Assembly: GCA_001825155.1 (NCBI GenBank)
Contig: MHVH01000005.1
Coordinates: 70,413 to 134,412 of the forward strand
From: Candidatus Zambryskibacteria bacterium RIFCSPHIGHO2_01_FULL_46_25
GTDB taxonomy: Bacteria; Patescibacteriota; Minisyncoccia; Phycocordibacterales; Zambryskibacteraceae
Direction: 5' to 3'
Length of the DNA stretch: 64,000 bases
Positions 4,795 through 58,435 of the stretch are shown here, in pieces. Each line of letters starts with the position of its first letter. Position 1 is the first letter of the stretch. The notes beneath the pieces were generated by a model. The model worked only from the letters and a program-made list of their open reading frames with translations. It ran no database searches and was not told where the DNA came from. Position numbers and translations under genes: made by a program.

Positions 4795-4986
4795 ATGAGA
4801 AAGATGAAAAAAGATACTAATAAAGACGGCAGGTATAGAACCAAAAGGGAAGATGTCCTGGTTAGAACCATAGAGAAAAAGTATGGTGTTAATTTGAAAG
4901 TTCGTTCTGATGCCCAACTGCATACAGTACTAAAGAAGTACGGTGCAGCTTCCTTGTCCCAACTTTTAAGAAAGGTTCATGGCTAA
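4795..4986 (+). CDS. Small basic hypothetical protein (63 aa) in an AT-rich islet
   Basis: ORF in a ~35% GC segment. It overlaps the next ORF by 8 nt, which suggests translational coupling. Confidence 0.35.
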   Translation: MRKMKKDTNKDGRYRTKREDVLVRTIEKKYGVNLKVRSDAQLHTVLKKYGAASLSQLLRKVHG

Positions 4987-5512
4987 ACGAGTCTTACTAT
5001 CTAAACATCCGTTTTCAAAAATCAAGAATAAGAGGCTCAGAACTGATTTATATGATGCTTTGTATTTTATTGCTTATTTAATCGAAGGTATTGATAGGGC
5101 TAAGGAAAAAAGATACAAGGAAGAATTTTTAAGAGTAATTATTTTATATATAGCATCGGTTGTAGAAGCCTTATGTTTATTTTTGGTTGAGAGTAATAGT
5201 TTGATACTCAAAAAAGAAGAATGTAGTCATATACGCCAAATATCAATGCCTGGAGTTTCGGTTGAGACAGGGCAACTTGTTATAGCTATACAGAAAGATA
5301 AAGATATCAAAATAAGAGATCTTCCTTTTGCTGAAGCAATTAAGGTTTTATCCAAAAATAGGAAAATTAGTGATACTTTATACGAGAAATTAAACACATT
5401 GAGAACTACTAGAAATACCCAACATCTCTACAGTAGAAAAAATTCCTCAGTTTCTAATGACGACGTAAAGAATGCTTATTCTAGTCTCGATCTACTACTC
5501 AAGCAAATATAA
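4979..5512 (+). CDS. Hypothetical protein with a HEPN-like C-terminal R-x(3-6)-H motif (RTTRNTQHLY)
   Basis: 177 aa, predicted alpha-helical, AT-rich codon usage. It is paired with a small upstream ORF in toxin-antitoxin/Abi-like fashion. The motif call is inference only. Confidence 0.3.
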   Translation: MAKRVLLSKHPFSKIKNKRLRTDLYDALYFIAYLIEGIDRAKEKRYKEEFLRVIILYIASVVEALCLFLVESNSLILKKEECSHIRQISMPGVSVETGQLVIAIQKDKDIKIRDLPFAEAIKVLSKNRKISDTLYEKLNTLRTTRNTQHLYSRKNSSVSNDDVKNAYSSLDLLLKQI

Positions 5513-5566: not shown

Positions 5567-5595
5567 ATATGTTTGCCTCGCGGATTGCGAGGACT

Positions 5596-6171
5596 TTAGA
5601 AGTTGAACCTGGCTCCGATGACTCCCTTGTCGTCGCCGACGGCGTACGTTCCCCAGAACGAGACCTTGCCGAATTTCTTCTCGATATAGGGCCCTGTTCC
5701 GAGAAAACGCGTGCTGTTGACGCCGACGAAGAAGGTCTTCGTGACTTCGAAGGTAGCGAGATGGCGAAACCAGTATCCGCTTCCGCCGTGTTCGTGAATC
5801 GAGAGATAGGACCAGCGCCCTTTCCCGACCCAGAAACTCACCGATCCTCGGAGCGGGTTCTCGTCAGTCTCGATGCCGAGACTGCCCGACAACTCCATCC
5901 ACCCAGCTGGCGCGAACGTGAGTCCAGCATGTCCCTCGCTCCAGCCCTTCGAGCTCAGCGACCAGACCGTCCAGCCAAGCTTGCCCTTGATCGGACCCTT
6001 GGCGTAGATGTCGACCTGGGGAGTCGTGCTGTCGCTGATCGTGTTGTACGACTCGACGAAACCGGTCGTCTGCGCGCTCGCCGTACAGGCGAGCGCGAGG
6101 AGCGAAATGATCGCGGCGAGGACGATGAGGATTTTCACCTCGAGGACCCTGTCTCTGTTGATTTTCTGCAT
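5596..6171 (-). CDS. Secreted beta-barrel-like protein (OmpW/OmpA-like small OMP?) encoded by a high-GC3 foreign-looking gene
   Basis: The start is moved to MQKINRD, which has a GGAGG SD 4 nt upstream; the track's start at 6198 would sit inside the promoter. It has a signal peptide ending ASA-QT, alternating hydrophobic strands, and ends in aromatic ...GARFNF. GC3 is strongly biased, unlike neighbouring genes. Confidence 0.5.
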   Translation of the reverse strand: MQKINRDRVLEVKILIVLAAIISLLALACTASAQTTGFVESYNTISDSTTPQVDIYAKGPIKGKLGWTVWSLSSKGWSEGHAGLTFAPAGWMELSGSLGIETDENPLRGSVSFWVGKGRWSYLSIHEHGGSGYWFRHLATFEVTKTFFVGVNSTRFLGTGPYIEKKFGKVSFWGTYAVGDDKGVIGARFNF

Positions 6172-6207
6172 TGCTCCTCCTTGTGGAGCGAAAAACACTC
6201 TCTTCCT

Positions 6208-6236
6208 ATCTTAGCACAATATGAATATCTTGTCAA
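6208..6236 (-). promoter_or_regulatory. Extended -10 promoter, TTGACAAGAT-N13-TGCTAAGAT family copy 1
   Basis: On the minus strand: TTGACA, 17 bp spacer ending in TGC, then TAAGAT. 22 of 29 positions match the copies at ~18170-18198 and ~18581-18609. Confidence 0.5.
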
Positions 6237-6249
6237 TCCCTGCGGGATT

Positions 6250-6313
6250 GCTTCAGGTTCGCTCGGGCTCTGTGTAAGCAAGCTCCCACATTCCCTCGCT
6301 GCCTGAAGTCAAG
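6250..6313. repeat. 64-nt conserved intergenic element, copy A, immediately 3' of gyrB
   Basis: GCTTCAGGTTCGCTCGGGCTCTGTGTAAGCAAGCTCCCACATTCCCTCGCTGCCTGAAGTCAAG matches 29836..29899 at 61 of 64 positions. Its ends form a CTTCAGG/CCTGAAG inverted repeat. Confidence 0.6.
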
Positions 6314-6321
6314 CACAAGAA

Positions 6322-8289
6322 CTACACATCCAAAACGGCCTTCTTGGCATTTGATTGGATGAAAGATTTGCGGCTGGGCACGTCGGAGCCCATGAGGATG
6401 TCGAAGATGCGGTCCGCTTCGCGGGCGTCCTCCACCTTGACCTGCTTTAGAATCCTTTTTGCCGGGTCCATGGTCGTCTCCCAGAGTTCGTCCGAATTCA
6501 TTTCTCCCAAGCCTTTGTATCGCTGAATATCCCCTGCCTCTTCTTTCCCGACAATCTTTATTTTCTCCTCATCGGAGTAAGCGAAGTACGAATTCTTGCC
6601 CATCTTGATTTTATATAGCGGTGGCTGGGCGATGTAAACATGTCCGGCGTCAATAAGTGGACGGAAGAAGCGGTAAAGCAGGGTAAGAAGAAGGGTGCGG
6701 ATATGCGCGCCGTCAACATCGGCATCAGTGGCAATAATTATCTTGTGGTATCGGAGTTTCGAAATATCAAATGTGTCCCCTATCGCCGTGCCGAAAGCGA
6801 CGACCAGATTTTTGATTTGCTCGGAAGCGAGCATCTTGTCGAGGCGGGCGCGTTCTATATTTAAAATTTTCCCGCGCAAAGGAAGGATGGCTTGTATGCG
6901 ACGATCCCGACCCATCTTGGCCGTGCCACCGGCGGAATCTCCCTCGACAATAAATATTTCCGACTCCTCCGCCGAGCGGCTCTGGCAATCCGCAAGCTTG
7001 CCGGGGAGCGTCATGCCCTCGAGCGCGCCTTTGCGAAGCACGGAGTCCTTGGCGGCTTTGGCGGCCTTCCTCGCTTTCAAGGCTAGAACCACTTTGTTGA
7101 TGATAGATTTCGCGTCGTCCGGATTCTCCTCGAGGAACTGGCTAAAGGCTTCGCCGAAGACGGTCGTAACCATAGCCTGAGCCTCAACGGAACCAAGCTT
7201 CGCCTTGGTCTGACCTTCGAACTGGATTTCGCGCAGTTTGACCGAGAGCACGGCCGTGAGTCCTTCCAGCACGTCGTCGCCGGTGAAATTATCTTCCTTC
7301 TCGCCTACGAGATTATTCTTCCTCGCATAAGTATTAAGAGTGCGGGTAAGAGCCGTTTTGAAGCCGGTAACGTGCGTGCCACCTTCGGCGGTATAGATGT
7401 TATTGGCGAAGGGCAAGAGACGCGATGAGATATCCTCAACGTACTGCAAGGCGACCTCGACCACTTCGTAATCATTGCCGTTCGCCTTCTTTTCAACGTA
7501 GAAAATATTGCGATGCATCGGCTTCAAGTGCTCGTTCTCGAAGCGCACGAGCGAGACGAGCCCGCCCTCGAAATAGAATGAGGTTGAAGGAATGTCGAGA
7601 CCCAATTCTCTTATATAGAAAACATTTTCGTCATCCACTTTCGCTAGATTGCGGGCATCCAGCACCGAGATTCTCAAACCGCGCACGAGGTAGGCCTGCT
7701 GGCGCATGTGAGAGACAATAGTGTCGTAGTTGAAGTTGATGTCCGGGAAGATCTCTTTGTCCGGTTCGAAAGTGATGATGGTACCGGTCTTGTCCGACTT
7801 AGCAATTTTCTTCACAGCACTTTTCTTCTTGCCCTTGCTGTATTCCTGGATATATACGCCGCCATCACGATGCACAACAGCCTTGCAATAAACAGAAAGA
7901 GCGTTGACCACCGAGGCACCGACGCCGTGGAGTCCGCCGGAAATCTTGTAGCCATCGCCGCCGAATTTGCCCCCGGCGTGGAGCGTCGTCATGATAGTCT
8001 CAAGCGCGGAAACCTTCGTCTGTTTGTGAATGTCTACCGGAATGCCTCGACCGTTGTCTACCACACGAACTCTGTTGTTGGGAAGAAGAACGATTTCAAT
8101 GTCATTGGCGAAGCCGCCCATAGCCTCGTCGCGGGAGTTGTCGAAGATTTCCGTAACAAGGTGCTGGAGGCCGTCGGGACCGGTCGTGCCGATGTACATG
8201 CCGGGGCGCTTCCTGACTGGTTCCAAACCTTCTAGGACGGTAATAGATTCAGCGCTATAGCTGCTTGTTTTAGACTTCTTTTCTGCCAT
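6322..8289 (-). CDS. gyrB: DNA gyrase subunit B
   Basis: GHKL ATPase, Toprim and C-terminal domains are all recognisable (e.g. EGDSAGG, PLRGKILN). The start is trimmed to MAEKKSKTSSY...; the track ORF extends upstream to 8364 through a non-homologous leader. Confidence 0.9.
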   Translation of the reverse strand: MAEKKSKTSSYSAESITVLEGLEPVRKRPGMYIGTTGPDGLQHLVTEIFDNSRDEAMGGFANDIEIVLLPNNRVRVVDNGRGIPVDIHKQTKVSALETIMTTLHAGGKFGGDGYKISGGLHGVGASVVNALSVYCKAVVHRDGGVYIQEYSKGKKKSAVKKIAKSDKTGTIITFEPDKEIFPDINFNYDTIVSHMRQQAYLVRGLRISVLDARNLAKVDDENVFYIRELGLDIPSTSFYFEGGLVSLVRFENEHLKPMHRNIFYVEKKANGNDYEVVEVALQYVEDISSRLLPFANNIYTAEGGTHVTGFKTALTRTLNTYARKNNLVGEKEDNFTGDDVLEGLTAVLSVKLREIQFEGQTKAKLGSVEAQAMVTTVFGEAFSQFLEENPDDAKSIINKVVLALKARKAAKAAKDSVLRKGALEGMTLPGKLADCQSRSAEESEIFIVEGDSAGGTAKMGRDRRIQAILPLRGKILNIERARLDKMLASEQIKNLVVAFGTAIGDTFDISKLRYHKIIIATDADVDGAHIRTLLLTLLYRFFRPLIDAGHVYIAQPPLYKIKMGKNSYFAYSDEEKIKIVGKEEAGDIQRYKGLGEMNSDELWETTMDPAKRILKQVKVEDAREADRIFDILMGSDVPSRKSFIQSNAKKAVLDV

Positions 8290-17087: not shown

Positions 17088-17774
17088 TTATTCGGTTTTC
17101 TTCTCGTTCTTTTCTGCGGGAGTAGCTTCGACCTCTGGCGTTTCGCCTTCAGTTTCTTCCTTACCCTTCTTCTCCACCTCGATGCTTGAGAGATCAATAG
17201 GCGCGACTTCCTCCTCCTTCTCTTCTCTAGGAGCGGAGACCGTGATAATCACCTCTTCCGGATTAATTTTGAGCTCGACGCCGTTTGGCAGAGTAATATC
17301 TTTTGCCAGAATCTGGTCGCCGAAATTGGCGAGACCCGATACGTCAACGGTAATATTGTGAGGCAAGTTTTTGGGCATAGACTCGACCTCCAATTCGTGA
17401 AGAACCTGGACTAGGATGCCGCCCAAGTCCTTGACCGCTGGGCTTACACCCGTAAGTTCGATAGGTAGAGCAACCTCAACTTTGTGACCCTTCTCGAACA
17501 CGTAGAAGTCGGCGTGCCTGGGCGCGCCGCTTACGGGGTCAATGTCCACATCTTTAATTAAGCTTTCTTTATTTCCGTCGGGAGTGTCGAGCGTTACCAC
17601 GCTTGATTCGCCTGCCTCCTTCCAAACCTTGAGAAAGTCGATTTTCGGGATGGAAATGGAGGTGGATGCTTCCTTCTTGCCATAAAAGACTGCGGGAATT
17701 TGTCCCGCCTTTCTGATTTCCTCCGGTTTGGTATCGGTATTCCGTATATGTGCCTTCAAAGTAAGCATAAACAA
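17088..17774 (-). CDS. rplY: 50S ribosomal protein L25 (general stress protein Ctc form)
   Basis: An L25 N-domain (PAVFYGKKEASTSISIP) plus a Ctc-type extension and an acidic tail. Confidence 0.8.
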   Translation of the reverse strand: MFMLTLKAHIRNTDTKPEEIRKAGQIPAVFYGKKEASTSISIPKIDFLKVWKEAGESSVVTLDTPDGNKESLIKDVDIDPVSGAPRHADFYVFEKGHKVEVALPIELTGVSPAVKDLGGILVQVLHELEVESMPKNLPHNITVDVSGLANFGDQILAKDITLPNGVELKINPEEVIITVSAPREEKEEEVAPIDLSSIEVEKKGKEETEGETPEVEATPAEKNEKKTE

Positions 17775-17795
17775 GATTCTAGCAGATTTTAAGCA

Positions 17796-17827
17796 AAAGA
17801 AAAGGGCAGGCCGGTAGCGGTCTGCCC
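17796..17827 (-). terminator. Intrinsic terminator of the 17853..18131 gene
   Basis: GGGCAG-N12-CTGCCC followed by TTTTCTTTT on the minus strand. Confidence 0.55.
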
Positions 17828-17852
17828 TTTGGGGGTGGGTGATGAAGATGAC

Positions 17853-18131
17853 CTAGACGAGAACGTTCCTGCGGTGGAAGACAGGTCCGCGCTGGTGGCG
17901 ACGGATGGCGTAGCCATCCATGGAGACGGCGACCACCTTGGCCACGAGCTTGTGGCCAGACCTGGTGGTGAATCGCACCTTGTCGCCAATCCCCGCAACG
18001 GCGGGTGCCGGCGTCAGAGTGACGGTGGGTTCGCTCGCGTAGTTGGCCACCGTCCTGGTCGCGAAGTAGCTCATGGCGACGCTGCCGACGATGATCATCC
18101 CGATGACCACGACGAAAAACATGAACTCCAT
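17853..18131 (-). CDS. Small membrane-anchored protein (92 aa); high-GC3 foreign-looking gene with its own promoter, SD and terminator
   Basis: GGAGG SD 4 nt before the ATG. A 5'-UTR hairpin, AACAGC-agtc-GCTGTT. An N-terminal TM (FMFFVVVIGMIIVGSVAMSYFA). Codons nearly all end in G/C. Confidence 0.5.
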   Translation of the reverse strand: MEFMFFVVVIGMIIVGSVAMSYFATRTVANYASEPTVTLTPAPAVAGIGDKVRFTTRSGHKLVAKVVAVSMDGYAIRRHQRGPVFHRRNVLV

Positions 18132-18169
18132 AAATCCTCCTCGAACAGCGACTGCTGTTCTCTGTTTTT

Positions 18170-18198
18170 ATCCTAGCATACTATATATATCTTGTCAA
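18170..18198 (-). promoter_or_regulatory. Extended -10 promoter, family copy 2 (TTGACAAGAT...TGCTAGGAT)
   Basis: See the copy at 6208..6236. It lies directly downstream of the terminator of the next cassette. Confidence 0.5.
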
Positions 18199-18205
18199 GC
18201 ATATG

Positions 18206-18233
18206 AAAAGGGGCGAACCTTTCGGCCGCCCCT
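18206..18233 (-). terminator. Intrinsic terminator of the 18357..18560 gene
   Basis: GGGGCG-N11-CGCCCC followed by TTTT on the minus strand. Confidence 0.5.
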
Positions 18234-18356
18234 GTAGCGCACGTGTTGCCCCCTTTAGGGCATTAAGTCATATTCGCATAAATTCTCCGGTTGGCACCTC
18301 GGCATGTTGCCCTGCCTCAGCGGGTGCCCCGCTCAAAAAGTTGATGTGGCGGCGGG

Positions 18357-18560
18357 TCACCACTTATTGTGACCGCCGTCCTGCTGGTCGAGACTGGGGA
18401 GGCGCGGAACCTGTCCGCAACCGCCACGCCCGACCATCGCGTCGAAGAGCTCATCGAAGCTCCCCCGCACGCGACCCTCGTCCTGGGCTCGCGTGAGACG
18501 ACCGATGAACATGTCGTCTTCACTACCAAGAACACGTTTCCGAGAAACTGATCGTACCAT
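18357..18560 (-). CDS. Small soluble protein (67 aa from its ATG); high-GC3 foreign-looking gene
   Basis: The track ORF's TTG start at 18599 lies upstream of the -10. The first ATG (MVRSVSRK...) has a GAGGTG SD ~7 nt upstream. GC3 bias is strong. Confidence 0.4.
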   Translation of the reverse strand: MVRSVSRKRVLGSEDDMFIGRLTRAQDEGRVRGSFDELFDAMVGRGGCGQVPRLPSLDQQDGGHNKW

Positions 18561-18580
18561 GTGTGGCACCTCTACTAATA

Positions 18581-18609
18581 ATCTTAGCATAATATACAAA
18601 TCTTGTCAA
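18581..18609 (-). promoter_or_regulatory. Extended -10 promoter, family copy 3 (TTGACAAGAT...TGCTAAGAT)
   Basis: 22 of 29 positions match the other two copies. Confidence 0.5.
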
Positions 18610-48175: not shown

Positions 48176-48664
48176 TCAGTCATTTTCAGGGTTTCCGCTA
48201 TACATAACTCTCTCATTGGTGTTCTTATTAGTTCCCCAGAATGGTATTAGACTCCAAAAGAATTTCTCACCTCCCTCCACCTCTTTGACTATAACTTTCA
48301 GTCTAATTTTTGAACCGCGCGATTCCATGACGGCGATAAATTCATAGTAAGTGGTAACTTTCATCACTTTTTCCCAACGACTATTTATCTTAACTCTTTC
48401 AATCTTTTTCGTAGTCCATATTCCTTGTAGAGTTTTAGATTGACTTATAATTTCTGGAGCTAGTTTTATATGTCTAAATCTTGCAAACTGATCGTTTGAA
48501 ACACGAGTGTTATTCCAACTTTTAAATACTAGGTGGTCCCATCCTTTTACATTAAAATGTACGTCACCTGCAAAATAAGGACAACGAACTTTACCAATTT
48601 TCTTATAAAAATCTTCAGCCAGATTTTTTACCTCATTAAATTTCTCAACTGTAAATTCCATCAT
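48176..48664 (-). CDS. Hypothetical protein (162 aa), AT-rich
   Basis: ORF only. Confidence 0.4.
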   Translation of the reverse strand: MMEFTVEKFNEVKNLAEDFYKKIGKVRCPYFAGDVHFNVKGWDHLVFKSWNNTRVSNDQFARFRHIKLAPEIISQSKTLQGIWTTKKIERVKINSRWEKVMKVTTYYEFIAVMESRGSKIRLKVIVKEVEGGEKFFWSLIPFWGTNKNTNERVMYSGNPEND

Positions 48665-48733
48665 ACATCATAAATTATATTACTTTGTTAGTTTCTTTCA
48701 TAATCCTGTCAGTTTCAACAAGAGCGACAATAA

Positions 48734-50017
48734 TTATAAACTACAACTCTTCGTCGAAGTTCCACCCTTCTCATTACGGAAGATACAAAGAAATTGATTA
48801 ACATGAGCATTATAAGAACTCATGAAATCTATTTGGTCAGGAGATAAACCGCGATTCTCTTCCATAATTTTTACTACCTCCTTTAACTGAAAGAGTATTG
48901 AATCTAAAACCATTAAGGATTTAGAGAAATTTGGATTAGTGGCTACAAGTGAAATGTGTTCGGTATAAATATCCTCCATCTCTTTCAATGCTTCTTGCCA
49001 TGATGTCAGTACTTCCGACTTATATTTCGGTAGCTTATCCTTATATGCTTGAACTTTCTCATCATAATCATCCATAAATTGCCTCTCTTCAATAGAAAGG
49101 TCGTTGTTTTTCTCCATTGCCACAAGTATGGATTTTAATTGAAAGTGTATGGAATCTAAGGCTGAAATTGATTCGGTAAAATCAGTCCCTCTAACTTTAA
49201 GTGATGCTTGCGATGTCTCCACATCTTTTAGTGCGACTTGCCACGAGGCCAATACCTCAGGCGTATATTTTGGTAATTTCTCATTTAAATAAACACCGAC
49301 AGAAATGAATAATATTACTATTAATACGAAAACACTCATTTCTTTTTTAGGTGTTTTTGTATCTTTCTTGAAAACAATGTAAATCAAAACTAATGCCAGA
49401 ACCCACGTAATAGAAAAACTAAAAATAGTTCCCCAATCATCCCAATGTATTACTGATAGGTTGAAAATAGCATGAAAAACAATTGCCAAAGTAAGTGCAA
49501 GAGTTGTAATAACGACACGCTTTCTTACAGATTTGTAAAATGAGAATGCTAAGGCGACTCCGATAATGCTACTTGCAACTACGTGTAAGAGACTTGCCCC
49601 AATAAAGCGTAAATTACCAGTGATAACGCTTCGAGTGGTATCTTCTCCAATAAGCGGTCCGACGACATAGAGAACATTTTCTAAAGCGGCAAAACCAAGT
49701 GCCGCTACTATCATATAAATTAGTGTCTTTGCCCTATCAATTTTAAGGAACTTAATAGCACATAAGACTACAGACAACTTAATAACTTCCTCCACAGTAG
49801 CCCATAAGAAAAGGACGATTGGTGGTGAGCCTGGGATAAATATGCTAAATGCTTTCTGAAATGGGAGAGCGAATAATACTGCAATAGCTCCACCCACAAA
49901 GACAAATATTGCGGACTTATTATCAAGACTCTGTTTTCTCGTCCAAAACCATACCCATATCAGTATGGAAATTGAACTTGCTACGACTGCGATGGAAATT
50001 GGATAAGCTAACTGCAT
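48734..50017 (-). CDS. PrsW-family intramembrane protease-like protein with two ~75-aa tandem extracytoplasmic repeats
   Basis: EExxK (VEEVIKL), FAALEN and HVVxS/HAIFN motifs sit in TM helices. The C-terminus has duplicated LPKYxxEVLxSWQxALK...LDSIxFQLK units. Confidence 0.5.
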   Translation of the reverse strand: MQLAYPISIAVVASSISILIWVWFWTRKQSLDNKSAIFVFVGGAIAVLFALPFQKAFSIFIPGSPPIVLFLWATVEEVIKLSVVLCAIKFLKIDRAKTLIYMIVAALGFAALENVLYVVGPLIGEDTTRSVITGNLRFIGASLLHVVASSIIGVALAFSFYKSVRKRVVITTLALTLAIVFHAIFNLSVIHWDDWGTIFSFSITWVLALVLIYIVFKKDTKTPKKEMSVFVLIVILFISVGVYLNEKLPKYTPEVLASWQVALKDVETSQASLKVRGTDFTESISALDSIHFQLKSILVAMEKNNDLSIEERQFMDDYDEKVQAYKDKLPKYKSEVLTSWQEALKEMEDIYTEHISLVATNPNFSKSLMVLDSILFQLKEVVKIMEENRGLSPDQIDFMSSYNAHVNQFLCIFRNEKGGTSTKSCSL

Positions 50018-50086
50018 TTTGTATTATTTAAAAACCAAAGTATCTTTTTATAAAATAATATTTAAATCAGTTACTCACTTTTCTTT

Positions 50087-50338
50087 TTACCAACCAAGCT
50101 TATTTTTTAGGCAATCAATACAATTTATATTTTCTTTAACCACTGATTTGATATTATTCTCATCGAGCATTATTCCACAGAGAGCCACACCACTCTTTTG
50201 AGGCACGTTTTGATTGTTAAGTGGTCCCCCTTTATGTTTAATGCGTTCCCAATGGGTTATTTTTTTCATTTTATTGGACTGGTATTTATTAAAATTATTA
50301 TCACAATTGTTCACCCTATTATACAATGAATTTTTCAC
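50087..50338 (-). CDS. Hypothetical small protein (83 aa), AT-rich
   Basis: ORF only. Confidence 0.3.
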   Translation of the reverse strand: MKNSLYNRVNNCDNNFNKYQSNKMKKITHWERIKHKGGPLNNQNVPQKSGVALCGIMLDENNIKSVVKENINCIDCLKNKLGW

Positions 50339-50517: not shown

Positions 50518-50611
50518 AATAAAACTCACATCATTTTCAGAGAATTTTTCTCGCGCGGCGCGGAGCGCCGCGCGCCAGAATTTTAGTCCTGACGAAGTAA
50601 GTCACATTCGG

Positions 50612-50682
50612 GCTGCCGGACTTGGACTCGAACCAAGATACTCGCCTCCAGAGGGCGATGTCCTACCATTAGACGATCCGGC
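50612..50682 (-). tRNA. tRNA-Gln (anticodon CTG)
   Basis: Minus strand TGCCGGA-TC-GTCT-AATGGTA-GGAC-A-TCGCC-CTCTGGA-GGCGA-GTAT-CTTGG-TTCGAGT-CCAAG-TCCGGCA-G, with a U1-A72 pair as in bacterial tRNA-Gln. Confidence 0.8.
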
Positions 50683-50777
50683 AATACGGGCTCAGATTAC
50701 ATTAAAAATCGGTTGTTTTCAATACATAGATTAAGAAAAGGGCCGTCGCTACGGCCCCTTTCGGGAATTCTTTTGAT

Positions 50778-56057: not shown

Positions 56058-56145
56058 AAAGATATTCTACCAATTTAAGTGAATTGACACTCTTTGACAA
56101 GAGAGTAAACTAGTGTCAGAACTGAAACAAACAAGGAGAATTACC

Positions 56146-57174
56146 GTGAACATTCACTATGTCTGGGGGAAGGCCGATTCTTTGCGAGGAGGCCTTTATC
56201 ATCTTCGCACCAAGGATGGCCGGAGGCGCCGGCCGGAGTATGTGACTGAATTCGGAGTGGAGTCGTTTGTCGACGATGAGTGCGCCATCCTCGAGAGCAA
56301 GGCGTTCCGAAACATGGCGCGCAAGACACAGGTCGTGACGATTCCGCAAAGCGCCATGATCAGGAATCGGCTCTCTCACGTAATGGAGGTTGTGGGCCAG
56401 GCGACTCGGCTTTCCGAGGCGCTTGGACTCAACACCAATCTGGTGAGAGCCGCCTCGCTTGGGCATGACATGGGACATGTCCCGTTTGGACATCCCGGCG
56501 AAGCCTGGATGCAGGGAGCTATGAAGCGCCACGACTTCTGCCACGAAGTGATGGGTGTCGTCATCGCCCAACATATCGAGCGACGCGGGCGAGGACTCGA
56601 CCTCTGTCACGAAACGCTCGAGGCCATGATGCGCCACAGCGGCAACCTGGCGAAGGAAGGCATGACCCAGGAAGCCTGGCTCTTGAGGTACGCCGACAAA
56701 ATTGCGTACCTCTTCCACGACGTGAACGACATCTTGGACCGTCTCGGATATCCCGCGAAGCCGGAGCTCCTTCAACTCATCGACGAGTTCGGCGACAACC
56801 AGAGGAGGCGAACCAGGACCGCGAGGTCCGGTCTCATCATCGAATCTGTCGAACTCGGGCGAGTGAGCTTCGAGGAATTGGAGCTTGGCATCAAGTTCCA
56901 GAAACTTCGGGATCTCATGTACGAGATTTACCCGAAGGTCATCGACCAGAACGTGGGAGCCACTATGGAGAAACTCCTCCGCGCTCTGGAAACGTTCGAC
57001 CTCGCCGACCCCTTTATGCTCCTCGCCTTGATGAACGATACTGACGCCATCTACCTTTCGTCGGTGGCATCGCCGAGCATGGAGGCATTCAAGAGAACGG
57101 ACCTGTGGGAAATCCGCCCGTATCTCGCCGAGATCGGCAAGGTGGACCTCTGCGACCCAGACCTTAATTGGTAA
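56146..57174 (+). CDS. dGTPase-like HD-domain triphosphohydrolase; high-GC3 gene
   Basis: HD motif (RLSHVMEV...GHDMGHVPFGH). The start is set at the GTG after an AGGAGA SD; the track's start at 56113 overlaps the -10. The promoter TTGACA, 16 bp spacer, TAAACT sits at ~56080-56110. Confidence 0.65.
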   Translation: MNIHYVWGKADSLRGGLYHLRTKDGRRRRPEYVTEFGVESFVDDECAILESKAFRNMARKTQVVTIPQSAMIRNRLSHVMEVVGQATRLSEALGLNTNLVRAASLGHDMGHVPFGHPGEAWMQGAMKRHDFCHEVMGVVIAQHIERRGRGLDLCHETLEAMMRHSGNLAKEGMTQEAWLLRYADKIAYLFHDVNDILDRLGYPAKPELLQLIDEFGDNQRRRTRTARSGLIIESVELGRVSFEELELGIKFQKLRDLMYEIYPKVIDQNVGATMEKLLRALETFDLADPFMLLALMNDTDAIYLSSVASPSMEAFKRTDLWEIRPYLAEIGKVDLCDPDLNW

Positions 57175-57232
57175 ATTAAGGTCAAATTGGTAGTTCGCGT
57201 TCGAAGGGCCGCCACAGCGTGGCGGCCCTTTT

Positions 57233-58435
57233 CTATTGCAATAAATTCTCTATCTCCACCAGTCGTTCGTATTTGCGGGCTTTTTCTTTCTGCCTCAGCG
57301 AGCCGGCTTTGATGAAGTCACACTCGAGTCCAACGGCCAAGTCGGAGATGAAGGTATCAAACGTCTCCCCCGCTCTATGCGAGACAAACGGCGTCATGCT
57401 GGCCTTCTTTGCCGCGTTTACCGCGCCTATGGTCTCGCTCAAGGTACCAATCTGATTCGGCTTGATGAGAACTGAGTTCACCGCTCTTGTTTGCGCCGCC
57501 TTATCAATCCTTTTTATATTGGTGCAAAGCAGGTCATCTCCGATAATAAGCATTTTCTCTCCAAGCGATTTCATCATGGCGGTAAATCCATCCCAGTCGT
57601 CTTGAGCAAAGCCATCTTCTATATAAGCTAGAGGGTGTTTTGTCGCCAATTCTTCATACCATTTCAAGAGTTCATCCCGATTAAATTTATTTTTTCCAAT
57701 CTCGTATAAACCGTTTTTATAGAAGCTGGACGCTGCCGCGTCTATACCGATTTTAATTTGTTCGAGAGAATAGCCGGCATTCTTTATCGCCTCTTCTATC
57801 ATCACGACCGCTTCCTCATTCGAGCCAAGCTTCGGAGCGAAGCCGCCTTCCGCTCCATAAGAAATGCTAAAACCTTTTATTAAAATCAGCTCCCGCAGAG
57901 CGGCAATCACCTTCCCCGCCGAAGACACCTTCGCGCGGAAACCGGAAATGCCCACGGGCACCATCCAGAATTCCTGGAGCTCAAGGCCGCTATCAGAATG
58001 CATACCGCCCTCTATGATATTGAGTGCCGGCACCGGAGGAACAAAGTGCTCGTTCCCGGCAATTTTGCCTATATATTCGAAGAGCTCCAAACTAAGCTCC
58101 TTGGCACAAGCGCGAGCGAAGGCATAAGAGACGGCGAGCGCGGCATTGGCTCCCAGCCGCGATTTGCTAGCCGTGCCATCGAGATTTATGAGCGCTTCAT
58201 CGAGGCTCTTCTGGTCGAATTCCCGCCCCGCTAGACTCGCCGCAATCTCACCATCTACATTTGCCACAGCCTGCGACGCTCCAAGCTCTACCGCTTCGTG
58301 GATACCCACGCTTGTGCCGGATGGCACGGAAGCCACTCCCTCCGCTCCGCTCTCGAGCTCGCACAAGACTTCGACAGTCAACTTGCCTTTAGAGTCTGGA
58401 ATCTCTTTCGCTTTAAGTAATTTTATCTTCGCCAT
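57233..58435 (-). CDS. eno: Enolase
   Basis: SHRAGETFDTFISDLAV and other enolase blocks. Confidence 0.9.
   Translation of the reverse strand: MAKIKLLKAKEIPDSKGKLTVEVLCELESGAEGVASVPSGTSVGIHEAVELGASQAVANVDGEIAASLAGREFDQKSLDEALINLDGTASKSRLGANAALAVSYAFARACAKELSLELFEYIGKIAGNEHFVPPVPALNIIEGGMHSDSGLELQEFWMVPVGISGFRAKVSSAGKVIAALRELILIKGFSISYGAEGGFAPKLGSNEEAVVMIEEAIKNAGYSLEQIKIGIDAAASSFYKNGLYEIGKNKFNRDELLKWYEELATKHPLAYIEDGFAQDDWDGFTAMMKSLGEKMLIIGDDLLCTNIKRIDKAAQTRAVNSVLIKPNQIGTLSETIGAVNAAKKASMTPFVSHRAGETFDTFISDLAVGLECDFIKAGSLRQKEKARKYERLVEIENLLQ

Follow-up and report, generated by a model that had tools for sequence, protein, structure and literature searches.

We analyzed a 64,000-nucleotide (nt) stretch of the genome of Candidatus Zambryskibacteria bacterium RIFCSPHIGHO2_01_FULL_46_25 (contig MHVH01000005.1, positions 70,413 to 134,412; hereafter the window), a member of the Candidate Phyla Radiation (CPR), in which three small genes stand behind near-identical promoters. 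The genes are called g191, g92 and g67 after the lengths of their predicted products in amino acids (aa). g191 is flanked by gyrB and the mraZ cluster, and g67 and g92 lie side by side between the genes for a FAD oxidase and ribosomal protein L25. A preliminary description of this DNA had proposed that each promoter is followed by a Shine-Dalgarno (SD) sequence, an open reading frame (ORF) of 191, 92 or 67 aa and an intrinsic terminator, and all of these parts were found by sequence analysis and folding. The three units are composed as follows, in window coordinates, with z describing folding relative to shuffled sequence.

6208-6236, minus strand: promoter P1 of g191; TTGACA, 17-nt spacer, TGC-TAAGAT
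6172-6201, minus strand: leader of g191, about 30 nt; SD AAGGAGGAG at 6174-6182
5596-6171, minus strand: g191, 191-aa ORF; predicted signal peptide with cleavage near ASA/QT, predicted all-beta mature part of about 160 aa
5531-5565, minus strand: intrinsic terminator of the g191 unit; 12-bp stem AACCGCTCATCC-GGAG-GAATGAGCGGTT followed by TTTTT, z = -5.0
18581-18609, minus strand: promoter P3 of g67; TTGACA, 17-nt spacer, TGC-TAAGAT; forms a repeat with P2 and has an orthologous promoter in the relative L084
18567-18572, minus strand: SD of g67, GAGGTG, 6 nt upstream of the ATG; predicted leader about 14 nt
18357-18560, minus strand: g67, 67-aa ORF; orphan, no predicted transmembrane (TM) segment
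18233-18356, minus strand: non-coding stretch 3' of g67, partly alignable with L084
18206-18232, minus strand: intrinsic terminator of the g67 unit; GGGGCGGCC-GAAA-GGTTCGCCCC followed by TTTT, z = -2.75
18170-18198, minus strand: promoter P2 of g92; TTGACA, 17-nt spacer, TGC-TAGGAT
18132-18163, minus strand: leader of g92, about 32 nt; a 5' hairpin, then the SD
17853-18131, minus strand: g92, 92-aa ORF; product predicted to span the membrane once; TM helix at the N-terminus, small four-strand beta domain at the C-terminus
17794-17830, minus strand: intrinsic terminator of the g92 unit (inverted repeat I2); AAAGGGCAGACCG-CTAC-CGGCCTGCCCTTT followed by a T-run, z = -4.6

The T-run of the g67 terminator stops 7 nt short of the g92 -35 box, and its tail, CCCTTTTCATATGCTT, extends into the P2 -35 box; these two units are therefore arranged head-to-tail with terminator abutting promoter, just as had been described. 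All three cassette terminators consist of a hairpin and a T-run that fold well beyond shuffled sequence (z = -2.8 to -5.0), and that of g191 has a second hairpin, CCTCGC-AATCC-GCGAGG, immediately upstream. The g92 leader contains a 7-bp hairpin (GAACAGC-AGTC-GCTGTTC, 18143-18160; free energy -10.4 kcal/mol, z = -2.8), followed by the SD GAGGAGGA at 18135-18142. The distance from the end of the -10 element to the start codon is 21-39 nt in the cassettes, corresponding to predicted leaders of about 14-32 nt. Long ORFs also run antisense to the cassettes on the plus strand (17829-18176, 115 aa; 18203-18496, 97 aa; 5569-6306, 245 aa). These are by-products of GC richness with a wrong codon-position pattern and could mislead gene callers.

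The motif TTGACAAGAT-N10-TGCTARGAT has three matches without mismatch, all on the minus strand (6236-6208, 18198-18170 and 18609-18581), and no fourth site in the window even when three mismatches are allowed, with 0.02 sites expected by chance. The preliminary description had placed these three 29-nt sites correctly but had written the gap as N13, a form without any match, and had counted 22 shared positions where the alignment of P1, P2 and P3 gives 23 of 29. Relaxing the motif to TTGACA-N14-TGnTAnnAT with at most one mismatch recovered the same three sites alone, and a separate scan for promoters with a -35 box and an extended -10 element returned P1, P2 and P3 as the sole real sites in the 64 kb. 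Each matches the -35 hexamer TTGACA at six of six positions and has an AT-rich 17-nt spacer, the TGC extension and a -10 element of TAAGAT or TAGGAT (four of six positions to consensus), with a T-A/G-TG-C element of the TRTG type before the -10.

Sigma70-type promoters with a -35 box and an extended -10 (TGn) include the TRTG "-16 region" of Gram-positive bacteria. P1-P3 share TTGACA, the 17-nt spacer, T-A/G-TG-C and TAnnAT with this type and by sequence are textbook strong promoters. They differ from it in agreeing at 12 of the 18 positions beyond generic sigma70 extended -10 needs (expected 1.15; p = 6e-11), so that the claim of conservation in excess of a sigma70 requirement was upheld. P2 and P3 moreover form a 35-nt direct repeat (86% identical) extending past the -35 box on its upstream side, and the terminator-tail junction CCCTTTTC-nnnn-TGCTT is also repeated in the window. 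The -10 element reads TARGAT in all five cassette promoters of the window and its relatives; of some 20 extended -10 elements of native genes, none has this sequence.

Outside the window, full -35 plus extended -10 promoters are rare in this lineage: 511 kb of related Patescibacteria DNA contained 12 sites, eight of which precede ORFs with a G+C content at third codon positions (GC3) of 0.63-0.86, most of them with an SD. We also scanned 185,579 genomes, a collection of species representatives that does not include the source genome. The exact 29-nt motif occurs in 61 of them, with a maximum of two copies per genome as counted from the match list, and the matches are frequent in Patescibacteria, Bacillota and Chloroflexota. 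Downstream of some Bacillota matches the sequence looks, by eye, like rRNA or tRNA leaders. Convergence does not readily explain three copies in 64 kb together with invariance at 12 extra positions. Exact matches in Kerfeldbacteria (L029) and Saccharibacteria (L026 and L080) are again followed by locally GC-rich DNA, including in L029 a 103-aa ORF with GC3 0.83 at a locus of GC 0.44, and no Rfam RNA was found downstream of these three matches. The cassette design may be widespread in the CPR.

The native genes of the window are organized differently. An extended -10 element of the form TGnTAnnnT, with no -35 box and ending 6-9 nt before the start codon, precedes 20 of the 72 genes, all without an SD, where 0.33 genes are expected by chance (p ~1e-28); about 15 more genes have a plain -10 element at the equivalent place. 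This arrangement is the sequence signature of leaderless mRNAs, and on these grounds it indicates widespread leaderless expression of native genes. Genomes with leaderless mRNAs are known from Actinobacteria, Deinococcus-Thermus and archaea, and from the "group C" bacteria of GeneMarkS-2. The host genes of the window share with them the fixed short distance from -10 to start and the lack of an SD, and the cassettes are exceptions to this pattern rather than members. An SD core of at least 5 nt is present in exactly four of the 72 genes, namely g191, g92, g67 and an HD-domain gene. For comparison with an anti-SD, the 3' end of a 16S rRNA gene was looked for and found in none of the collected loci. 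Because native genes are predicted to be of the leaderless type and lack a -35 box, the cassettes, with their -35 box, leader and SD, form a separate expression class (the leadered class), of which the HD-domain unit is the fourth member. The earlier idea of a native promoter module consequently did not hold, since the cassette promoter is not typical of native genes. In the literature searched, we found nothing specific on leaderless expression in the CPR, and no account tying a minority of leadered, SD-bearing genes to GC-rich accessory genes in these bacteria.

17776-17784, minus strand: L25 promoter of native type, predicted leaderless; the extended -10 TGCTAGAAT lacks a -35 box and stops 7 nt short of the ATG at 17768; right boundary of the insertion site
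2307, 3907, 12164, 13993, 17776, 21201, 26025, 26449, 28053, 39346, 43397, 47260, 53997, 54863, 55449, 56064, 60860 and 63290: examples of native extended -10 elements
56084-57234, plus strand: HD-domain unit; promoter TTGACA (56084-56089), 16-nt spacer and TAAACT (56106-56111), not the 29-nt module; leader of about 35 nt; SD AAGGAG (56133-56138); GTG start at 56146 and ORF to 57174; terminator 57203-57234

The leadered class also stands apart in base composition. The window has a GC content of about 0.49 and a median GC3 of 0.56 over its 72 genes, and GC3 is 0.86 in g92 (the top value of the window), 0.80 in g191, 0.74 in the HD-domain gene and 0.64 in g67, which gives the class the three top values (Mann-Whitney p = 5e-5). 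GC at the three codon positions is 0.58/0.45/0.86 in g92 and 0.73/0.46/0.64 in g67, whose overall GC is 0.61. Thus, the cassettes are compositionally atypical, as proposed, but per-gene values show extreme GC3 in g92 and g191 and not in g67, and the surrounding genes are not AT3-rich. C-ending and G-ending codons are both enriched in the leadered class, and the genes for chaperonin, L25, S2 and EF-Ts show no shift; these observations argue against translational codon selection, which we ruled out as the cause of the high GC3.

Amino-acid usage divides the cassette genes into two groups. The ratio of arginine to arginine plus lysine, R/(R+K), has a native median of 0.40 and a 95th percentile of 0.64. 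It reaches 0.69-0.82 in g92, g67 (0.82), an 88-aa ORF of the relative L084 (ORF88), ORF100 of L090 and the single g92 homologue P0022, most of which are also high in Gly, Ala, Arg and Pro. Such usage implies that GC pressure reaches their non-synonymous sites, suggesting a GC-rich source, and g92 and g67 are probably recent acquisitions from such a source. g191, at 0.37, has native-like usage. A foreign, high-GC origin had been proposed for all three genes; it fits g92 and g67, which are Arg-rich orphans, but not g191, which has homologues, synteny and native-like usage.

The history of the g67-g92 site can be read from relatives. Using the FAD oxidase as query, we collected 54 related loci, about 25 of which keep the order aldolase-FAD oxidase-L25-SLT. 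The gap between FAD oxidase and L25 is 12 nt in five relatives (L085, L089, L091, L096 and L098) and 60-95 nt in about ten more distant ones (e.g. L101, L102, L104 and L109). In seven others (L084, L090, L092, L129, L094, L099 and L093) it measures 300-800 nt and holds a different gene in each case; these encode TM proteins, SET-domain-like and AdoMet-decarboxylase-like proteins and others, and none is related to g67 or g92. Variation of cassette content between relatives, a check that had been suggested, is evident at this junction, which is a hot spot. In the insert-free relatives, the -10 element of L25 (TAGAAT) overlaps the FAD oxidase stop codon (GAG TAG AAT ... ATG; L085 5402-5415, L098 3632-3645), which means that the 12-nt insertion point already holds a leaderless promoter. 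No target-site duplications were found around the g67-g92 insert.

The closest relative, L084 (75% FAD oxidase identity), has a near-identical promoter, GTGCTTGACAAATATTCTATATTATGCTAGGATAAACACAGA, at the same position, followed by a strong SD and then by the GC-rich ORF88, which is unrelated to g67 (E = 17). The -10 and start region of P2, TATGCTAGGATAAAAACAGA, matches L084 at 23 of 25 positions. The right boundary, CTTTTCTTTTGCTTAAAA, is kept in L084 together with the L25 -10 element, and CTTTTCTTTTGCTTAAAA is found in L090 as well. The L084 gap also contains about 300 nt of GC-rich non-coding DNA. About 120 nt lying 3' of g67 (18233-18356) align with L084 (~7025-7160) despite the unrelated ORFs upstream, and this stretch includes a GCGGG-nnn-CCCGC hairpin and an SD with the mini-ORF ATG-CGA-ATA-TGA. 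It matches no Rfam family and has no unusual fold (z = -0.4 in the window and -1.5 in L084), so a structured-RNA reading was dropped and we take the similarity as residual shared ancestry. At this junction, then, the regulatory shell is conserved and the cargo variable. Within the window, the cassette bodies are likewise unrelated to one another; the duplication proposed earlier thus applies to the shell, which is repeated, and tandem duplication of whole cassettes was ruled out.

The g191 site has a different history. A relative with closely related division genes (L017; MraZ 80%, PBP 69% and RsmH 65% identical) carries a g191 homologue in the equivalent position, ahead of the mraZ cluster and behind the promoter TTGACAAATAGATAATATTATGCTAGGAT. 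Its GC3 is 0.76, and four aligned division genes have 0.44-0.64. Four neighbours at L017 3286-5291, encoding a Band_7 protein, a 177-aa protein, the g191 homologue and a 207-aa protein (X207), all have GC3 of 0.72-0.76. In total, g191 has 16 divergent homologues of 53-66% identity and one 99%-identical cluster, on related CPR-type contigs; one homologue is labelled Candidatus Paceibacterota. In all five family contexts for which DNA was available, the gene follows a -35 box, an extended -10 element, a leader and an SD, and it is GC-richer than its host locus each time (locus GC 0.38-0.52, gene GC3 0.63-0.81). With the proteins about 44% diverged, turnover of synonymous sites would be expected, so the high GC3 of g191 does not stem from a recent foreign origin. 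g191 instead seems to belong to an old, vertically kept family whose high GC3 would be maintained by some gene-specific force.

Several observations concern the surroundings of g191 and its relatives. Upstream of mraZ, two or more cassettes stand head-to-tail in L017, and their junction reads terminator-TTTTCTTAT[A/T]CTTGACA. Next to g191 in the window, on the opposite strand, lies a low-GC pair of ORFs (4795-5512, plus strand; 63 and 177 aa, GC 0.33-0.35) with a weak PHROG_35412 match alone and no Pfam match; on a JGI contig (L009) other small genes come after the 63/177-aa pair, which makes this flank of g191 variable as well. In L021 (1-4759), a g191 homologue adjoins an island that encodes RhuM, HTH regulators, an M78 peptidase and a serine recombinase; no other context suggested a connection with a mobile element. 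An IMG/VR contig that is not clearly viral encodes a relative of g191 with 40% identity, which is neither GC-rich nor cassette-like there.

Searches of Pfam, NCBIfam and PHROGs with g67, g92 and g191 gave nothing credible. g92 and g67 were orphans in a search of 5.8 billion proteins, and an exhaustive phmmer search yielded a single distant homologue of g92, P0022 (89 aa, 33% identity), which has the same layout of TM helix and domain and shares the motif GYA-x-RR...GPVF; its gene adjoins parB on a short contig. As had been stated, g92 has a predicted TM helix and g67 has none. The AlphaFold2 model of g92 (predicted local distance difference test, pLDDT, 63 overall and ~70-77 in the domain) consists of a TM helix at residues 2-32, a linker and a small four-strand beta-barrel, for which Foldseek returned Tudor/SH3-like matches that were not significant. 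We infer from this model that g92 may be a membrane-anchored small beta-barrel domain. g67 offers no informative feature; it is predicted to be soluble and is probably coding.

g191 is probably a secreted, all-beta, barrel-like envelope protein with a signal peptide, to judge from its sequence features. By inspection, members of its family have a hydrophobic N-terminus with an A-x-A type site and end in R-F-[NS]-F in 13 of 17 cases and in ...-x-F in 15 of 17; g191 itself ends in ...VIGARFNF. The secreted, beta-barrel-like character claimed for it is supported by the predicted signal peptide and the C-terminal aromatic signal; the structure model is of low confidence (pLDDT 45). A sequence-profile search of the PDB with g191 gave no match. 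It falls in the size class of small outer-membrane beta-barrels such as OmpX, OmpW, KdgM and NanC, with no sequence-family match to them. Patescibacteria are generally regarded as having no outer membrane.

One further block of the window is compositionally unusual. Genes at 48176-50338 on the minus strand, adjoining tRNA-Gln (50610-50684), are low in GC (0.31-0.39; GC3 ~0.3) and encode an LPD3-like protein (162 aa), a PrsW-protease-like protein (427 aa) and an 83-aa ORF. It may represent a genomic island whose composition departs in the opposite direction.

Considered together, these data lead us to favor, with moderate confidence, the view that the three sites head autonomous, monocistronic accessory cassettes, similar to phage morons, that have one regulatory shell in common. 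This shell, a module specific to the lineage, comprises the promoter, the first transcribed bases and the terminator-tail junction; it is duplicated in the window and stands before unrelated ORFs in relatives. By its sequence, RNA polymerase would bind both promoter boxes and transcribe the cassette strongly, translation would start by the classical route with the 30S subunit and the SD, and the terminator would block read-through into the neighbouring housekeeping gene, so that a unit could sit between essential genes without disturbing them. The duplicated strong promoter, leader and terminator would thereby insulate and express small accessory genes wherever a junction between essential genes is permissive, and the genome around them would be leaderless by default. 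The cargo would have two histories, recent and GC-rich for g92 and g67 and old for g191. Of the preliminary description, self-contained cassettes with a common promoter module have thus stood up, the native character of the promoter has not, and foreign origin survives for the orphans g92 and g67 alone.

Phage morons have been added to phage genomes as independent units of transcription (Cumby, Davidson & Maxwell 2012, PMC3594210). The cassettes resemble them in comprising one small gene with its own promoter and terminator, a GC content unlike that of the neighbours and, at the g67-g92 site though not at g191, an addition relative to syntenic genomes. Moron products are often small membrane proteins, such as the inner-membrane protein gp15 of HK97, and g92 offers a parallel. 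Unlike morons, the cassettes lie between chromosomal housekeeping genes rather than in a phage or prophage, share one promoter module and include, in g191, an old and syntenic gene; no phage genes lie nearby and no matches to PHROGs or phage databases were found. Their flanks hold the housekeeping genes gyrB, mraZ, FAD oxidase and L25. A phage origin was rejected, as tblastn gave no match in 50,697 phage records and a search of viral contigs yielded no relative of g92.

Integron gene cassettes are likewise small, single-gene units in head-to-tail order whose unrelated cargo varies between relatives. They are usually promoterless, end in a structured attC and require IntI, whereas the units of the window each carry a promoter and a terminator of their own. 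No attC-like element is common to the three units, whose 3' hairpins are terminators only, and no integrase was present in the flanks examined; we conclude that they are not integron cassettes. Rfam identified three tRNAs alone over the window, and permissive scans of both gaps gave only terminator-like noise.

Several points weigh against our interpretation. No recombinase, phage gene or mobility footprint was found beside the cassettes, with called genes covered to ~6 kb from each site, so that the suggestion of mobile units drew no support from adjacent machinery, and tblastn gave no match in 50,697 phage records. The synteny of g191 with L017 means that this gene is not a recent addition. 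The relaxed motif is common among viral contigs and present in other phyla; occurrence in many phyla and in viral contigs marks it as a generic strong-promoter form, and part of the similarity among P1-P3 could be convergent. The count of the 29-nt module covers 64 kb, and copies before ordinary genes elsewhere in the genome are possible. With its weak codon-position signal and lack of a homologue, g67 may not encode a protein. Finally, the strength of the promoters, the start sites and the leaderless character of native genes have all been read from the DNA.

The main alternative, which we regard as rather unlikely, is that the cassettes are nothing but resident genes whose required expression is very high. 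The motif would then be the lineage's optimal promoter for the primary sigma factor, reached by convergence, high GC3 would reflect selection on the mRNA, for example for stability, and nothing would be mobile. P1-P3 do come close to a perfect sigma70 extended -10 consensus, occurring in exact form in 61 other genomes, and in relatives unrelated genes stand behind similar promoters; the species has the cassettes in fixed form, and the persistence of high GC3 in syntenic g191 through ~44% divergence speaks for selection rather than a foreign relic. Convergence toward an optimum does not readily account for invariance at 12 of the 18 non-functional positions or for a repeat that extends into the terminator-tail junction. 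Evidence against high expression as the reason comes from the chaperonin, L25, S2 and EF-Ts genes, for which high expression is expected and which have neither this promoter nor an SD and show no GC3 shift. Long residence is hard to square with a FAD oxidase-L25 junction that is empty in five relatives and occupied by unrelated genes in others, or with orphans whose amino-acid usage is GC-driven.

A second alternative, to which we give little credence, is that the tandem units, g67 above all and g92 less likely, are non-coding, being either decaying foreign DNA or a non-coding RNA, with ORFs that arise simply from stop-poor, GC-rich DNA. Antisense ORFs of 115 and 97 aa do cover the same DNA, g67 has a GC1 higher than its GC3 and no homologue, L084 shares the DNA 3' of g67 despite having an unrelated ORF, and ~300 nt of GC-rich non-coding sequence occupy the same gap there. 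Against this, g92 has the classic coding pattern of high-GC genes, its product combines a TM helix with a domain able to fold, and a distant homologue resembles it in length and layout; both ORFs have a well-spaced, strong SD and an ATG right after the promoter; Rfam gives no match, and shuffled sequence folds equally well; and g191 is clearly a conserved protein.

Assembly chimeras, or high-GC contamination binned into a CPR genome, would fit the sharp local shifts in composition but can be practically discounted, because the exact g67, g92 and g191 proteins each occur, with the same housekeeping neighbours, on at least 20 independent contigs from varied samples, assemblers and archives (NCBI, ENA, JGI and Logan groundwater assemblies; for example NCBI contig MHWI01000004.1 of GCA_001824055.1), which rules out chimeric assembly and indicates that the cassettes are fixed in the population, and because the junctions hold lineage-typical promoter and terminator sequence conserved in relatives.

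A bolder extension of the cassette interpretation, which we offer as speculation and consider improbable, is that leaderless CPR genomes keep a second, classical channel of expression. The shell, from promoter to terminator, would be a reusable landing pad that persists at fixed junctions of housekeeping genes while its cargo is exchanged or born from GC-rich DNA, in an integron-like turnover that needs no integrase, and g191, as a long-lived cargo, would be an outer-membrane-type barrel, possibly at the surface of the host cell.

The novelty of these observations lies in the contrast between two expression grammars and in the different behaviour of shell and cargo at a conserved junction. Gene-expression signals of CPR bacteria have been little studied experimentally because few of these organisms have been cultured. 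The window suggests that one tiny genome uses a leaderless default for its core genes alongside a classical grammar of promoter, leader and SD, the latter seemingly kept for a small number of GC-rich accessory genes, most of them directed to the envelope. Two puzzles accompany this picture: GC3 stays high in the g191 family although its hosts range from 38-52% GC, and g191 has a barrel-like character in a supposedly single-membrane lineage. If the pattern were true genome-wide, it would provide a simple sequence rule to pick out accessory and host-interaction genes in CPR genomes, a ready set of strong promoter, SD and terminator for CPR genetics, and a natural case of new small genes being plugged into streamlined genomes while their essential neighbours remain undisturbed.

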